Of a DNA stretch of 64,000 nucleotides, positions 18,628-63,348 are shown piece after piece. Numbering within the stretch: the stretch's first letter is position 1; each line of letters begins with the position of its first letter. A program made the translations under genes and the position numbers. Source of the DNA: a virus; the IMG/VR virus record IMGVR_UViG_3300028840_004217, positions 28,050 through 92,049 of that record; one strand, 5' to 3'. The notes under the pieces were generated by a model. It saw nothing but the letters and a program-made list of their open reading frames with translations. It did not search any database and had not been told where the DNA came from.

Positions 18628-21600
18628 CTACCTTCCGTCCTCCCCCTCCTCGAACTTGCGCGACTTCACGATCTCAGCGATGGCCCGTTCATCCGCCTTG
18701 GACCGCCACGCCAGATAGGTCTGCTCGTCCGACAGGTGTTCCCGCAGTTGCTTGATGGCGCTGGCCTGGCCCTCCCGTATGTTGCGCGCCTCCTTGCTCT
18801 CGGCAGACCGCACCATCCGCTTGTATTGCTCCTCCAGCTCGGACAGATACCGCATGAAATGATTCCAGCTCGCGTAATAGTGCATCAGTGTTTTCCTCCC
18901 GTCAGCCGGTCCCACTGTCTGTGGAACGCGGGTTCCCAACGCTTCTTGGTCATGACCGTGAATACGAGCAGCACCGCCAGGGCCGACAGCTTCAGCGGAT
19001 GCGTCTGGTAGGCGGGGAAGCCGTAGTAGGCCGACGCCCCGCACATGGCCCCTATGATTATACACTTGATGAAGTACAACATCAAAGCCTCCGTATGTGG
19101 GACATGGCGTTCTCGACCGTCAGGATGGTGAAATCCTGGAGGCCGCTGTGCTTGCACATGTCTATGATCTGATCGTCCGGTACACCGGCGGTCATCATCT
19201 CCTCGACGGCCTCCAGCAGACCGGGCATGTTGTTCTGCAAGGTCTCATAGCTGATCCGCTCGACCTGCTCGGTCAGCGTGGGGTTCAGGATGGGCTCCGT
19301 CATGACGCCTCCTCTTTGAGGGGTACCAGGTGCGGGTAGTGCGTGATCAGGTGGCGCAGCAAGCCCTCGGCCTCCTCGCGGCTCAGCCGGTTGATCTTGA
19401 GGGCCACGTCGGTCGCCGTCCGCTTCTCGAACATGAACGTATTGGCCAGGTTGTACGCGCCCTCTATGTCCTCCAGCCAGGCCATGTAGTCCTGGTGCTC
19501 GGCGTGCTGTTGCTCGAAGGCCCGCTCGGACGCCTTCTCATTCTCCCAATGTTCGAGGATGACGTCCGCGAATCGGTCGGCCGTCTGCGCCAGCGACTCC
19601 TTCTTGCGTTCCCGGTACTGCTTGCGACTGCCGTAGTTGCCTATGGTCAGGTGGGCCGTGTTCTCATATTGGGTGCGCCAGCCCGTGCCCCGGTTGATCG
19701 GCTTGAACTCGGTCCACACCAACGTGCCGTCGATGCGGTCGACGCGGAGGGGGCTGCGCTCCACCTCATGGCCGTGTGCCTGGAGGACGTGAACCACCAT
19801 GTCGACCACGCCCTTGACATAGGACCGTGCGGCGGCGTTGTTCGCGTCGCGTTCCTTCTGATCATAGATTGTCATGATGCTCTCCTCGTGCTTGGTTGTG
19901 CTATGCCGACGGTTCTTTCGAGCCGCCCCCGTTGTTTCGGGCGGGCCGCTGATCGCGGCCCCGCACACTCACACAGCTACGGATGCTCGTCGCCGGTTTC
20001 GGGTTCCGGTTCCTCTATCTCACCGACTTTGACTTCCACCGGCAGTTCGGGCGGGTTTTCGACGTCGTACTTGGCCTCAAGAAACCGGGCCAACTCGATG
20101 GCGGTGTTCACGAGGGCCATATACTTCTCGGCCTCATCGATGCTGCGTGAGCCTTGCGCCGACCAGTTGACGGCGGCGGTCCGCATCGGCTGGCCGTAGC
20201 GAATTTCACCGGGCCGGTTGACGGTGACGCGGTTAGTCCGATCATCTGTGTTCTCGATGTCGATGTGGCTGTCATACACCCGCATCGTCACGTTGTTGTC
20301 GGCGTCCTCTACGAGATGCTTGGCGAACTCATCGATGCGGTTCACCTGATTAAGATATTCAAACACCGTGGACAGTGAATCGGAGGTGTTGAAGTATTCC
20401 TCTGGTCCGACCTCTTCGTCGGTGCGGTAGGTGCTGCGGATTCTGAAACGTAACATGATTTGGTTCTCCTTGTGTCTGCTGCGTTGATTAAAGGGCTCTG
20501 AGCGTGTCGATGAAAACTTTGTGAAACAGCGGATAATTCTGGCCGGGCCGCAGTTCGTCAGCGTTGAACTCTTTCCACTTGGCTATGGCCACCTGCTTGT
20601 CGTCTGTGAAATAATAGTCGTTCCAGGCTTTGTTGTACACCGCGTACTCGGTGGTTTCTGTTTCCCGGTTGTGTGACTCGGGGCTGTAGTGAATCGTGAG
20701 TTCCTGGCGTGTCATCTGTCTGCTCCTTGTGTCGTGTGGTTTCCTCTTTGTTCTATATACAATATAACATATATTGATTACTTTGTCAAGAGGGCAAGGG
20801 CATTTTTTTTCATTTTTTTACGATTTTTTTTCAGGCAGGAAAGTGCTTTCGCACCAGGTGGGAAAATGCGTTCGCAGTCGGCGGGGGCAGTGCGAAGGCA
20901 CATCAGAGGCGCGTGCGAAGGCGCTAAAACAGGCTGGTCTGCTCGGCGTCCTTGTCCTCCGGTATGTCCTCGCTCTCGAAGGTCAGCAGGGCGCGGTGAT
21001 CCTCGCCCTCGATGATGATGTAGTCGTCCGACCACAGACACCGCCACTTGCCGTCTTTGAAATGATAGTGGCCGAGCCAGGAAAAGTCATTTTTCTGATA
21101 TTTCTTCTTGGGCGGCGCGTCGGCGTCGATGCAGGTGATGTGTATGTGGGGCGGGCTTTCGGGCGGCTCCACATAGTACCACTCGAAGGAGCCGTCCGGC
21201 AACTCACGCCGTCGGTGCGCGTTGATGATGTCATGGTATCGCGGGCAGGTACAGTCGGCCTTGATCTCACGTACCTTGTAAGGCCCGGTGTCATAGGACG
21301 TTCGTATGATACTGCCCACCTTCAGTTCGGGCATCAGTCATTCTCCAGGTGATCGCGGGGCAACAGACTGTTCTTCTTGATGACCTCGCTCAACTTGACC
21401 ATGCGCCACTTCGGTGGCACGTCGTACTCATCGGGACACACCTCTTTGCACTTGGCCACCGGCTGTCCGTTCGGAAAACCGAATGAACGGCAGTTCGGGC
21501 AGTCGTATATCTCACCCCAGTGATTCGTGCCGGTCTCGAATTCGTGGCCGCAGTTCTGACACTCATAGGGCTTGATGCTGTACTTTCCGGTCGTGGGTTT

Positions 21601-23974: not shown

Positions 23975-24003
23975 AATATAACATATCTATGTTACTTTGT
24001 CAA
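23975..24003 (-). promoter_or_regulatory. Early sigma70-type promoter
   Basis: TTGACA-17-TATATT; near copy of the 20761 promoter, including flanks. Confidence 0.85.
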
Positions 24004-26605: not shown

Positions 26606-26634
26606 AATATAATATCTATTGTTTATTTTGTCAA
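26606..26634 (-). promoter_or_regulatory. Early sigma70-type promoter
   Basis: TTGACA-17-TATATT. Confidence 0.8.
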
Positions 26635-36946: not shown

Positions 36947-37708
36947 TCAGAAGGGCAAATCGTCATCCGCATCGAATGACTTGGGTTCCTCGTCACCGGG
37001 TTCAGCCGTGGCCGTACCCTCCGGTGTCTCGTCAACCGGGTCGGCGTCCGCCGCTTCCTTCGCGGCCTTGTCCTTCGCCTGGAAGTGGTCTATGATTTCC
37101 GATGCGTCGCCCTTCGACAGCGTGCCCGCCAGCTTCGCCTTCAGGCGTGACCGTTGTTCATCTGTGAGGTCCTTGCGGTTCGCGATCTTCTCGACCCACG
37201 CCCTCTGCTTGTCCGTGGCCGGGTCGTCGGGTTTGCGTACCGTACGGCCGTTGCTGGAGCCGCCGCGCTGTCCCGCCGTCGATGCGTCGTCATCCTCCTG
37301 CGCGATGTTGAGGATGCCGTTCATAGAATACCGTCGGGCATAGCTGATGATCTTGCCCGCCACCTGGCCGAGTGACAACGCCTCCTTGCCCTCGTCCGTC
37401 AGTTCGGGCTGAACGTGCATCACGATGCGTTCCGACAGCCACTGTCCGGACGTGTGCGACACGATCGTTTCGATGCCGGCGAAGGCCATCGGCGTGCCGT
37501 CGTGGGTGCTGATCTGCATCTCGGACACCGGGAACTGGCTGATGGCCAGCCCGTGCTTCGTCCAGATCGGACGGGCCATGTTGAGCACCTGTTCGAGATT
37601 GGCGTATTTGCCGTAGTAACTCTTTTGATCGGCGACCACGTTTTTAACCTCTGCCTGCACTGCGGTCAGCGCGGTAGACAGTTCACCGATCTCTGCGGAC
37701 ATGTTCAT
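36947..37708 (-). CDS. erf: ERF-family single-strand annealing protein
   Basis: YANLE, LAISQ, HTSGQW, GKIISYARRY...EDDDA; acidic DDDLPF tail. Confidence 0.9.
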   Translation of the reverse strand: MNMSAEIGELSTALTAVQAEVKNVVADQKSYYGKYANLEQVLNMARPIWTKHGLAISQFPVSEMQISTHDGTPMAFAGIETIVSHTSGQWLSERIVMHVQPELTDEGKEALSLGQVAGKIISYARRYSMNGILNIAQEDDDASTAGQRGGSSNGRTVRKPDDPATDKQRAWVEKIANRKDLTDEQRSRLKAKLAGTLSKGDASEIIDHFQAKDKAAKEAADADPVDETPEGTATAEPGDEEPKSFDADDDLPF

Positions 37709-37787
37709 GGTCTTGCCTCCTTGTGTTCAGGACACCGTGGCGGTGTCCGGGTGGGTTCGGTTGATGAAATCGTATCATCACTATCAC

Positions 37788-37816
37788 AAAATAATATGAT
37801 TGTATTATTTTGTCAA
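37788..37816 (-). promoter_or_regulatory. Leftward early promoter
   Basis: TTGACA-17-TATTTT; divergent from a rightward TTGACG...TATTAT-like promoter at ~37848-37878. Confidence 0.7.
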
Positions 37817-37899
37817 GAGAAAAAACGCTATGAGGTTGTGTTTTATCTTGACGGATAGACCTATCAAGTTCTATTATCCTATATCAAAAGGGGGAACGC

Positions 37900-38109
37900 A
37901 TGACATTCACGGAGTTTTGGGACGGTTTGAAATACGGCGAACGGACGGCGATGGCAGATCGCCTCGACCGCCACGTGATGTACCTGGAGGCGGTGGCCCA
38001 CCGAAGAAAGCGTCCGTCCTTCGCGCTGGCGCAGGCCATCGCGGACGACACGGGGCAGCAGGTGACGCTGGACAGTTGGGGTGACATTTTGCAGTGGGTG
38101 GGAAAATAA
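37900..38109 (+). CDS. Cro/YdaS-like HTH regulator
   Basis: YL..VA...KRPS.ALA.AI...T.QQVT pattern; first gene of the divergent operon. Confidence 0.7.
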   Translation: MTFTEFWDGLKYGERTAMADRLDRHVMYLEAVAHRRKRPSFALAQAIADDTGQQVTLDSWGDILQWVGK

Positions 38110-38112
38110 ATC

Positions 38113-38141
38113 TTTACAAATTGAGTATAGGATATTATATT
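38113..38141 (+). promoter_or_regulatory. Promoter for a putative small RNA
   Basis: TTTACA-17-TATATT(G), same class as the early promoters; no ORF follows for ~250 nt. Confidence 0.7.
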
Positions 38142-38147
38142 GATTAC

Positions 38148-38235
38148 TGTCAGGGCCGCCCTGGTCCTTGACACTCCTTGTGTTTGACACCGGGGTGGCG
38201 GACGCCATGCCGCCCCCCGGTCCGACGTCAGCATA
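38148..38235 (+). ncRNA. Putative anti-RBS small RNA
   Basis: Hairpin, then unpaired ACUCCUUGUGUUU (38173-38185), then a GC-rich hairpin. Confidence 0.6.
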
Positions 38236-38400
38236 AGGAAAAAATGTGGGGAGTGGCTTTCGTCAAGCCACCCAATTTGTTATCTTTGAATTTGAGGCTC
38301 CGGCTTGCAACCGGAGTGCCGACAGGCTGAAGCCCCGGCGCGGTGCCTGATTCACCCGCCGGGCGCGACTCACGGTCCTTGTCAGGAAGGAGCGCCGATC

Positions 38401-38646
38401 ATGCCATCTGCTATTCAATCAGAATTTCCGCAAGATCAATTTATCAAAATTCAAGCACCCTTCGACGGGCCGCTGTTTTACTTCTGTCAAGAAGATATGA
38501 CGCCGCGTTCCGCAGGAGCCGGTCACATACCGTCACATGAACAGGTGCAGTGGTTGATTGACGTTCTGGAGAGGTACCGCGCTACATTCACTGATGCTGA
38601 AATACAGGCTTTCAATGAGGGGCGTGGATATGAGCAAGTCAGATGA
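38401..38646 (+). CDS. Hypothetical protein
   Basis: SD AAGGAG; overlaps the start of the initiator gene. Confidence 0.5.
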   Translation: MPSAIQSEFPQDQFIKIQAPFDGPLFYFCQEDMTPRSAGAGHIPSHEQVQWLIDVLERYRATFTDAEIQAFNEGRGYEQVR

Positions 38647-39286
38647 TGATGCCACAGTTGAACTCAGTGATCATCCGATTTTCAACAGACACACGCAAAT
38701 TCCCAATGAACTGATCGACCATCAAGCCGCGTTGGGTTTGCGAAATCCTGTGTTCATACTTATTATTCATTTGTTACGCTATCGCTATAAGGCTACCCGG
38801 TTGCCCTATCCGTCGATGAATACCCTGCGCAAGAAGATGGGCCTTAAAACGCTCGATTCAATAAAGGACTCGACGCATTGGCTGGAGGAAAAAAAGTATC
38901 TGGTGCGACAATATGATCGAACAAAAAATCGCTATACCTGGGACCTATCCGGTCTGTTTGAAGCCGCATTAAAACTACCGCAATATGAGCCAGATAGGGG
39001 GGGGAGGGAAAAACCACCCCCCCCTGATGATGAGGGGGGTGGGAAAAACCATCCCCTGGGGGTGGGAAAAACTACCCCCCCAGGGGGGGAGAAAAATACC
39101 CCCCCAGTAAGAAAAATAGGTGTTACCAAGAATACGAGTAATGATCTTCATTTATCGTCACCTGAAACAGATAAACAAACTACCCCACCCCTGTCACCAG
39201 AGGAGGAGCTGAAACGCATAGCCAGAATGAAAGCCCACCTGAAAGCCACGCAACCCCAAGAGGAGGAGAAAAACGAATCCTCATAA
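38630..39286 (+). CDS. Replication initiator (winged-HTH, lambda O/DnaD-like)
   Basis: TQIPNELI...YPS..TL...L...YL HTH region followed by internal iteron-like repeats. Confidence 0.75.
   Translation: MSKSDDDATVELSDHPIFNRHTQIPNELIDHQAALGLRNPVFILIIHLLRYRYKATRLPYPSMNTLRKKMGLKTLDSIKDSTHWLEEKKYLVRQYDRTKNRYTWDLSGLFEAALKLPQYEPDRGGREKPPPPDDEGGGKNHPLGVGKTTPPGGEKNTPPVRKIGVTKNTSNDLHLSSPETDKQTTPPLSPEEELKRIARMKAHLKATQPQEEEKNESS
38997..39107. repeat. Iteron-like repeats (probable replication origin)
   Basis: Four G-run-GAAAAA-N-C-run units inside the initiator gene, followed by an AT-rich stretch. Confidence 0.65.
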
Positions 39287-43430: not shown

Positions 43431-43459
43431 TTGACAAAATAAACTCTATTTGTTATATT
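43431..43459 (+). promoter_or_regulatory. Sigma70-type promoter abutting the repeat array
   Basis: TTGACA-17-TATATT with extended TG. Confidence 0.85.
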
Positions 43460-43490
43460 GACATGAGGGAGATATGAAAGGGGGAACCTC

Positions 43491-53161: not shown

Positions 53162-53184
53162 CTGTTCCTCCTTGTGTTGTATAC

Positions 53185-53213
53185 AATATAATATCATTTA
53201 TTCACATTGTCAA
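53185..53213 (-). promoter_or_regulatory. Early sigma70-type promoter
   Basis: TTGACA-17-TATATT. Confidence 0.8.
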
Positions 53214-57738: not shown

Positions 57739-58704
57739 ATGTTTTTCAATGATCCTCAAGACCAGATGGCGATACGCCGTTCCCTGGATGTCCAGCGCGC
57801 CCTTGCTTCGAGTGGTGCGGGGGCCGTTCTGGTGCAGCCCGTGGTCGATCAGGTCATCGCCAATCTGGTGACGTATGACAACCCGCTCCGCGCCAACCTC
57901 CCAAGACGGCCTGGTTCTGGCCAGGCGTGGTTGCTCAATCGCCGGAGCGCACCGGGCACGACACCGGCCTCCTGGGTTGCCGACACGGACACCCTCGTGG
58001 AGGACAACGGGACCTACGCCCGTTCGACGTTCACCTACCGCACGCTGGCTGCACGCGGGAAGGTGACACGACTCCTGCAAGCCACCGGACGGACCTACAT
58101 GGACATCCTGGCCGAGGAGATGGAGTACCGCGCCGAAGATTTGGGCAACACGGAAGACCAGGCGTGGCTCATCGGCAACAACACGGACGACAGCAACCAG
58201 CCCGACGGCTTGTGTGTTTTGATCGCCGCCGCGACGTGCGTGCTCACCACGACAGCCACAGCAGGTGAAGCGCCGACGCTGGAGGAGATCGACGAGACCA
58301 TCGACGCGTGCCGGTACAACCCGAACATGATCATCTGTTCGAAGCGTACCCGCCGTCAGATGCAGACCATCCTGCGTGCCAACCAGATCATCGTCGAGGA
58401 AGTGGAAGTGAACGGCGGGTTCCGGTTGATGTCCTACAACGGCATACCGATCTTCGTGTCCAGCAACATGACGGACACCAAGACGTTCGACGGCTCGGTT
58501 ATCAGCGCGGAGACGGGCGGCTCGATTTCGGAGCTGTACGTGGTGGACACGGCGCGCACCTGGATCGGCGAGTTGACACCGCTGACGATGGCACCGCTGG
58601 CCCGCACATCTTCTCAGTTCGACCAGTTCGATCTGTACGAGGACGTGGTGATGGTGGTCCGCGATGCTGCCGCGAACGCGAAACTCATCGGCCTCGCTCC
58701 GTAA
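57739..58704 (+). CDS. Major capsid protein
   Basis: 321 aa after the protease; PDGL, YNGIPI, YVVD, PLART motifs typical of HK97-fold capsids. Confidence 0.85.
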   Translation: MFFNDPQDQMAIRRSLDVQRALASSGAGAVLVQPVVDQVIANLVTYDNPLRANLPRRPGSGQAWLLNRRSAPGTTPASWVADTDTLVEDNGTYARSTFTYRTLAARGKVTRLLQATGRTYMDILAEEMEYRAEDLGNTEDQAWLIGNNTDDSNQPDGLCVLIAAATCVLTTTATAGEAPTLEEIDETIDACRYNPNMIICSKRTRRQMQTILRANQIIVEEVEVNGGFRLMSYNGIPIFVSSNMTDTKTFDGSVISAETGGSISELYVVDTARTWIGELTPLTMAPLARTSSQFDQFDLYEDVVMVVRDAAANAKLIGLAP

Positions 58705-63134: not shown

Positions 63135-63179
63135 CGTAGGCTCCTGGTTGTCTGTCCGCTTTCCTCTCTGTCTATATAC

Positions 63180-63208
63180 AATATAATATATTTGTATCAC
63201 ATTGTCAA
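63180..63208 (-). promoter_or_regulatory. Early sigma70-type promoter
   Basis: TTGACA-17-TATATT; shares the downstream GTATATAGACAGAGAGGAAAGCG with the 23975 promoter. A divergent TTGACA-17-TATCTT lies at 63280-63308. Confidence 0.85.
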
Positions 63209-63348
63209 TAGGGCAACGGAAGAAAATTGAAAATAATTCAGAAAAAGTGATAAAAACCGGCGTGCCTCCAGGAACGCACTTGACATAATGATATATGAGT
63301 ATTATCTTGTTTGTATCGGCAATCACCATTCAACCACAAGGAGGTACC

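Follow-up and report, generated by a model that had tools for sequence, protein, structure and literature searches.

The element described here lies in a viral record of 92,049 bp, complete with direct terminal repeats, that was assembled from a sediment/seawater metagenome; the window referred to throughout is the whole stretch of DNA that was analyzed, the 64,000 nucleotides corresponding to bases 28050-92049 of that record. The phage has a GC content of 60% and a GC3 of ~0.8 for the genome. To the left of the element (coordinates in Table 1), a divergent promoter region separates an ERF recombinase gene (Pfam ERF, E=2.5e-18), which faces leftward, from a Cro-like gene, which faces rightward, and the leftward genes also encode an HTH_17/excisionase-like protein and a methyltransferase. 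The 69-aa product of the Cro-like gene has no Pfam match, and a protein atlas relates it to YdaS/Cro-type HTH proteins (feature score 0.95, TM up to 0.89), so that the description of this neighbor as Cro-like in an earlier sequence-only reading of the locus stands as a lead only. Downstream of this gene come the sigma-70-type promoter at 38113-38141, an untranslated leader of 253 nt and ORF81 with the overlapping replication-initiator gene; the ribosome site of ORF81 reads GGAAGGAG (38385-38392), and a consensus scan found no other promoter-like site between 38148 and 38401. Because the GC3 of ORF81 and of the replication initiator is only 0.44-0.48, compared with ~0.8 elsewhere in the genome, this replication module was probably acquired horizontally, with a mosaic joint near the element. 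Around the Cro/YdaS-like gene, the sequence TATCCTATA occurs in exactly two window copies, inverted with respect to each other (37875-37883 on the plus strand and 38126-38134 on the minus strand), the first overlapping the -10 element of the cro-like promoter and the second being situated within the promoter at 38113-38141; they form a candidate operator pair on either side of the gene. A promoter-like site on the minus strand, CTGACA-18-TATACT (38153 to 38124), would direct antisense transcription into the same gene, and a perfect 11-bp palindrome, ACAAAATAATA/TATTATTTTGT (37786-37796 / 37803-37813), is located between the divergent ERF and cro-like promoters.

Table 1. Features at and around the element, in window coordinates
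Feature	Position	Strand	Basis or remark
Family promoters	20761-20789, 23975-24003, 26606-26634	-	13-member family
Family promoters	37788-37816, 53184-53213, 63179-63208	-	13-member family
Family promoters	38113-38141, 43431-43460, 63280-63309	+	13-member family
Family promoters, four more	upstream of window		13-member family
ERF promoter, leader hairpin and CACAAGGAG cassette	37717-37816	-	Closest paralogue of the minus-strand surroundings of the orphan
Cro/YdaS-like HTH gene, 69 aa	37900-38109	+	Own promoter at 37848-37877; assignment a lead only
Sigma-70-type promoter TTTACA, 17 nt, TATATT	38113-38141	+	Consensus scan; family block TATTATATTG
Hairpin 1	38148-38173	+	Predicted transcript 5' end; 10 pairs, one G-U pair working only on the plus strand
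Orphan CACAAGGAG	38174-38182	-	Sole copy without a start codon; plus-strand RNA reads CUCCUUGUG
Long imperfect hairpin	38175-38239	+	Predicted basal helix, then GAC/GUC, then GC-rich upper stem 38189-38221
Weak terminator-like hairpin, stem GUGGCUU/AAGCCAC, with CCAAUUUGUUAUCUUU after it	38253-38282	+	7-bp stem, interrupted U-tract
Remainder of the untranslated leader, 253 nt overall	38283-38400	+	More stems; SD of ORF81 partly paired (predicted)
ORF81 and overlapping replication-initiator gene	38401-39286	+	ATG at 38401; HTH_36 / DnaD_N, PHROG 'replication initiation O-like'

The promoter at 38113-38141 is one of 13 near-identical members of a family with the near-consensus sigma-70 sequence cTTGACAaa..T(A/G)TTATATTG, and it bears the exact 10-mer of the family block. 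Transcription from it would start at about 38147-38149. An exact copy of the 9-mer CACAAGGAG together with a start codon is found within 100 nt after 8 of the 13 family promoters, and GACAAGGAG follows one further member; the promoter at 38113-38141 is the only one that precedes a mirror image of the motif and no gene. Small minus-strand genes are driven by most of the family promoters, some of which share the initial transcribed sequence GTATATAGACAGAGAGGAAAGCG. The sequence-only reading had reported both this promoter and the lack of an open reading frame after it, and both observations hold: the only candidate, an ATG-initiated frame of 28 codons (38244-38330), has a GC3 of 0.59, compared with ~0.8 in real genes.

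The motif itself is strongly over-represented, with 12 copies in the window against 0.37 expected by chance, a number reached in none of 100 shuffles. All 12 window coordinates given by the sequence-only reading are correct, and 11 of these copies carry an ATG or GTG at 3-9 nt with an open reading frame of at least 50 aa. Across the 92-kb genome, 18 copies are present, of which 17 are followed by ATG or GTG after 3-9 nt and open reading frames of 50-507 codons; six of the start-linked copies lie in the rest of the genome, outside the window, and all but one of the 17 (16 copies) occupy non-structural blocks of the minus strand. The single copy devoid of a start codon is that at 38174, on the minus strand, which the sequence-only reading had described as not being a ribosome-binding site (RBS) itself. 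A real minus-strand gene behind this orphan was considered and rejected, there being no start codon at 3-11 nt and the sole open reading frame running antisense to the Cro-like gene. Allowing one mismatch added ~11 real ribosome sites, e.g. CACGAGGAG, CGCAAGGAG and GACAAGGAG, and no second intergenic orphan. A tolerance for wobble pairing among these targets was also considered, as 7 of the 11 one-mismatch sites are transitions that would keep the pairing, and was dropped since this hand count is not significant once transition bias and improvement of the Shine-Dalgarno (SD) sequence are taken into account. The trinucleotide CAC precedes AAGGAG at 14 of 20 minus-strand sites and at 1 of 13 plus-strand sites (Fisher p=0.0009); the CAC extension is thus specific to a gene class and not general to the SD sites of this genome, and the earlier remark that the 9-mer is missing from late structural gene starts is correct for this reason. 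Both the motif and its class specificity are real, as are the promoter and the orphan copy.

Because members of the promoter family precede it, CACAAGGAG is the ribosome site of a repeated promoter-leader-RBS cassette, and it is also present at some operon-internal genes. In the motif, an ACA trinucleotide lies directly upstream of the SD sequence (c-ACA-AGGAG), with A/C-rich sequence before it, and the whole looks like a CA-rich (ACA-type) enhancer fused to an SD sequence. ACA motifs just upstream of the SD sequence are translational enhancers, and they are targets of the GU-rich seed of the small RNA GcvB (PMC3879156). The 9-mer would then be the standard ribosome-binding module of an "early cassette," made of a CA-rich ACA-type enhancer and the AAGGAG SD sequence, and it would serve mostly the first gene behind the strong sigma-70 promoters of the family on the minus strand.

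Comparison with other phages bears on this view of the motif. In the phage database, blastn returned no match and no close relative, and a search with the portal protein found no relatives. Against 5.8 billion proteins, and with the window's own proteins set aside, the best matches of the ERF protein and of the replication initiator were 46% and 35% identical, respectively, and the Cro-like protein had no match; among viral contigs, the ERF search gave one relative at best, with 29% identity. An ERF relative in a gammaproteobacterial metagenome-assembled genome (L012) is without the regulatory design. Two phages, L007 (JAAOEI010000120.1) and L010 (IMGVR_UViG_3300002231_007626), have major capsid proteins 67% and 75% identical to that of the phage; their GC content is 41-43%, ~20 points under the 60% seen here, and the DNA available for both is of the structural region only. 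Both carry minus-strand cassettes, scattered among the structural genes, in which a TTGACA...TATATT promoter, a CA-rich leader and an SD sequence stand ahead of small genes, and CA-rich leaders are absent at the structural genes of these two phages. The exact leader sequences differ, e.g. caacacacaaCACGAGGAG, acaacaaaGGGAG and aaacCACAAGGAG, with cacacaacaaaGGGAG, cacaacacacaacGGAG and aaacCACAAGGAGtatttcATG as further examples, and caacacacaac tracts occur in them; caacacacaaCACGAGGAGacacatcATG is syntenic with the window's site at 53168, beside the portal gene. In L010, two cassettes, at positions 80 and 8929, have an identical leader and gene start. That the design is kept in the lineage and the exact sequence varied fits a CA-rich translational enhancer. 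Pattern searches with the promoter family gave matches in unrelated low-GC phages only, the promoter-plus-leader pattern had L010 as its sole match and the exact seed-plus-hairpin pattern had none, and no relatives spanning the element region were found by nucleotide, protein or pattern searches. Among the sequencing runs listed for the sequence there is no RNA run and there are two DNA runs (X1 and X2), in which it is present as identical 22,498-nt contigs of similar depth and with no variants; since the runs resemble one data set filed under two studies, probably a single data set filed twice, they do not count as independent occurrences.

In the fold predicted for 38142-38300, both as minimum-energy structure and as centroid, UCCUUGUGUU (38175-38184) pairs with AGCAUAAGGA (38230-38239) in a basal helix that includes two G-U pairs, and the pairing partner of the mirror sequence is thus predicted to be an SD-like AAGGA at 38235-38239. 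All structure and accessibility figures given here are predictions. The sequence-only reading had proposed a small RNA ending at 38235 in which hairpins frame an unpaired, exposed seed, and the parts of this proposal fared differently. Hairpin 1 and the GC-rich hairpin at 38189-38221 do fold as claimed. The supposedly unpaired ACUCCUUGUGUUU, on the other hand, is base-paired in the predicted RNA, with a probability of being unpaired of 0.00-0.10 for positions 38175-38182 in transcripts with a 3' end at 38282, 38295 or 38430 and in those reading through from the cro-like promoter, and even in an RNA ending at 38235 the UGUG remains paired. A base-paired seed was one of the outcomes that the sequence-only reading itself had named as refuting its model, so that at the level of prediction the result goes against it. 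That end turned out to be arbitrary, there being no U-tract after the second hairpin and a sole terminator-like site at 38253-38271. The hairpin and U-rich stretch at 38253-38282 could act as a leaky 3' end giving an RNA of ~135 nt; terminator-like sites are not enriched here, with 13 found compared with 16.8 expected from shuffles over 20 kb. Opening the helix over the 9-mer is predicted to cost 9.4-11.7 kcal/mol in every transcript extending past 38240, and only a hypothetical RNA truncated at 38225 would expose the motif. The extent to which the seed is hidden is moderately unusual at most, being equalled in 15% of RNAs with shuffled tails. The predicted fold energy is -67.7 kcal/mol for the plus strand and -58.0 kcal/mol for the minus strand (z of -3.9 vs -2.1), and structure in the plus-strand RNA is favored because three stem pairs are G-U. 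The leader further contains three UCCUUG-type anti-SD-like elements, GGTCCTTGACA (38163-38173), CTCCTTGTGTT (38174-38184) and GGTCCTTGTCA (38374-38384), the last of which sits 6 nt before the ORF81 ribosome site, so that local pairing is possible.

The RNA is more simply explained as the leader of a messenger, because the transcript continues into ORF81 and the replication initiator. The promoter at 38113-38141, together with read-through from the cro-like promoter, would drive the replication operon rightward, and positions 38148-38400 would form its leader, with the motif copy inside it in the opposite sense. In this leader the mirror sequence would not be a free seed; it would form the 5' half of the basal helix, and leaky termination would possibly yield the ~135-nt species as a by-product. 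We infer that this RNA serves chiefly as the leader of an mRNA, without any trans role dedicated to the anti-motif; the full reading, in which a structured leader of the replication operon carries a fossil or duplicated ribosome site in antisense, appears to us about evenly poised between right and wrong. The structure of the plus-strand RNA may have been selected for a purpose outside this explanation.

The way in which the motif may have come to lie at 38174 is suggested by the ERF cassette. On the minus strand, the orphan is flanked by a -35-like CTTGACGAAAG 84 nt upstream, which resembles the family -35 region CTTGACAAAG, then by a GC hairpin and then by AAACACAAGGAG; the ERF cassette is laid out likewise, its -35 element standing 91 nt upstream and being followed by a hairpin and by tgaaCACAAGGAG. 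A direct repeat, CTCCTTGTGTT..GACACCG..TGGCGG, is shared by the orphan flank and the ERF cassette, 457 bp apart. The promoter parts have 27 identities in the best ungapped 50-nt window (p=0.0045 by shuffling and 0.0005 by block shuffling), homology of the cassettes being judged by this ungapped-window statistic, as global alignment with free end gaps is unsuited; the hairpin arm taken alone has a weak similarity to the ERF leader (p ~0.04, uncorrected). On account of the common layout, the direct repeat and the promoter-part identities, it is reasonable to regard the surroundings of the orphan as a decayed duplicate of the ERF promoter-leader-RBS cassette, and such a duplication would explain the arrival of the motif at this position. 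Within this copy, AAACACAAGGAG (11-12 nt) is perfectly intact (11/11), compared with ~54% identity in the putatively duplicated promoter part. An intact motif beside such diverged flanks leaves room for selection on it and hints at a constraint on the motif itself.

The intact motif also speaks for a wider form of the model of the sequence-only reading, in which the RNA would act in trans: it would pair through CUCCUUGUGUUU with up to 17 early-type messages (28 with one mismatch), cover their CA-rich enhancer and SD sequence and block their translation, as a GcvB counterpart encoded by the phage. Its active form could be the ~135-nt species, a fragment made by processing or the leader as such. 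The promoter is a genuine family member, and the motif behind it, 26 nt from the putative start site, is the sole gene-less copy, in the sense opposite to that of its would-be targets; it also fits the consensus flank AAA, and the class-specific CAC extension is not a general SD property. The Cro/YdaS-like assignment of the neighboring gene, itself a lead only, agrees with the model as well. Contiguous complementarity to the 17 ribosome sites is 9-13 pairs, and the predicted hybrid energies at motif sites are -17 to -22 kcal/mol, compared with a median of -11 at other gene starts (seed-restricted calculation, as unrestricted duplex folding gave meaningless long duplexes). GcvB acts likewise on CA-rich targets (PMC3879156). 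However, the predicted pairing of the seed speaks against this scheme: once the energy needed to open both RNAs is counted, the net value has a median of +1.4 kcal/mol for the RNA spanning 38148-38282 and of -11.2 kcal/mol for the hypothetical short RNA cut at 38225, so that net binding is around zero unless the RNA is cut before 38230, and a single unpaired base is available to begin pairing. In addition, there is no clear terminator, and the leaders of the relatives vary in sequence, which an enhancer fits better than a seed match does. Because a hairpin is predicted to enclose the mirror copy, a small-RNA off-switch is possible but unsupported, and we regard pairing in trans as unlikely. 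It is just as doubtful that the RNA starting at ~38148 works as a GcvB-like global silencer, through which the onset of rightward replication transcription would shut the leftward early program of 17-28 messages; the gene for such a silencer may have arisen by inverted use of a duplicated target leader.

The same helix could also be read as a switch in cis, in which the anti-SD segment at 38175-38184 and the SD-like AAGGA at 38235-38239 gate ribosome entry on the 28-codon leader frame and thereby set read-through into, or translation of, the replication operon. The 10-bp helix with its GAC/GUC pairs stacks on the GC hairpin in the predicted fold, AAGGA followed after 4 nt by the ATG at 38244 makes a plausible start, the frame traverses the terminator-like hairpin at 38253-38271 and the SD sequence of ORF81 is partly paired as well. 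Yet the base composition of the frame resembles that of non-coding sequence and the frame has no family match, the helix is not strongly above chance, the terminator is weak and no alternative fold within 9 kcal/mol releases the SD-like site, and we regard such gating as improbable. Least likely is that a protein reads CACAAGGAG, be it a phage or host translational repressor or an endoribonuclease like T4 RegA/RegB or a reader like that of the Start-Associated Sequence (SAS) of Cluster K mycobacteriophages, in which case the orphan would be of no relevance or would act as a decoy or in autoregulation. In favor of such a reader, the 9-mer varies very little and is confined to one gene class, RegB cuts the GGAG of early SD sequences (PMC1702504) and the SAS authors allow for a protein or an RNA reader (PMC3203893), but no candidate protein was identified, a RegB-family search of the genome gave no match (a control search being likewise empty) and a single-strand RNA-binding protein would miss the orphan because the transcribed plus strand reads its complement.

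From a broader point of view, the solid part of these results is a clean phage-private start-associated tag, in which 13 near-identical promoters, a CA-rich enhancer and an SD sequence are joined ahead of a defined gene class, and the promoter/CA-rich leader/SD design is kept by relatives of very different base composition. The function of such tags, of which the SAS is an example, has been open since 2011, and a mirror copy in a promoter-driven non-coding RNA provides a concrete and cheap probe of whether RNA reads them. If this were true, the phage would possess a counterpart of GcvB timing the early-to-replication switch; if false, the element would be an ordinary structured leader with a fossil ribosome site.

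Several known systems are analogues of the locus in part. In T4 (PMC1702504; PMC3014915), early messages share an SD-centered signal that allows class-wide shut-off, as the motif might here, and the reader described there is a protein nuclease, RegB, assisted by S1. The c4 RNA of P1/P7 resembles the RNA proposed for this locus in that a phage-encoded RNA occludes a phage ribosome-binding site by base pairing (reviewed in PMC12197685), but its complementary segments are in loops, and it controls a single operon (icd/ant), being processed out of the very same transcript. Ribosome sites are also masked by P22 sar and lambda OOP, which are cis-encoded antisense RNAs acting on a single operon each (PMC12197685). 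A search of Rfam, C4 included, gave no match at gathering score in the window and chance-level matches at E up to 10 for 37700-38500. GcvB, on the other hand, has a G/U-rich segment complementary to CA-rich sequence directly upstream of the SD sequence of many messages, as would be the case here, and the ACA elements that it targets themselves boost translation (PMC3879156). In contrast to the RNA considered here, it is a host small RNA, Hfq-dependent, whose seed is single-stranded and whose terminator is clear; in the phage RNA the corresponding segment is predicted to be paired, and the 3' end has no more than a weak candidate.

Of the phenomena described so far, the SAS of Cluster K mycobacteriophages comes closest, for whose reader the authors allow "either RNA or protein" (Pope et al. 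2011; PMC3203893). Like CACAAGGAG, the SAS is a phage-private asymmetric motif containing the SD core, found a few nucleotides before the starts of a subset of non-structural genes, nearly always oriented the same way and for the most part where the intergenic gap is larger; the leaders upstream of it are CA-rich, and K1 genomes have a single opposite-orientation copy without a gene start, as seen here. It differs in its sequence, GGGATAGGAGCCC, in its length of 13 nt and in its actinobacterial host. In Adephagia (L013, JF704105), the inverse SAS is at 58682-58694 of the record (L013 38683-38695), between gp92 and gp93, which are separated by 432 nt; it occupies a hairpin loop (stem GCGCGG/CCGCGC), whereas the inverse copy of CACAAGGAG is predicted to be in a stem. 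The Adephagia hairpin is within a stretch of ~330 nt that 182 Cluster K records have in conserved form, with a GCTTTTAGACT block, likewise conserved, ahead of it, and in some of the Cluster K records a CDS is annotated across the region. In other subclusters, as in Amgine, Phrank and Shandong1, the loop reads CUUCCCUUCCC, and since the SAS of Amgine is still GGGATAGGAGCCC, loop and tag do not co-vary. The parallel between the inverse SAS and the orphan is suggestive, without settling either case, and the motif described here is an analogue of the SAS rather than a member of it.
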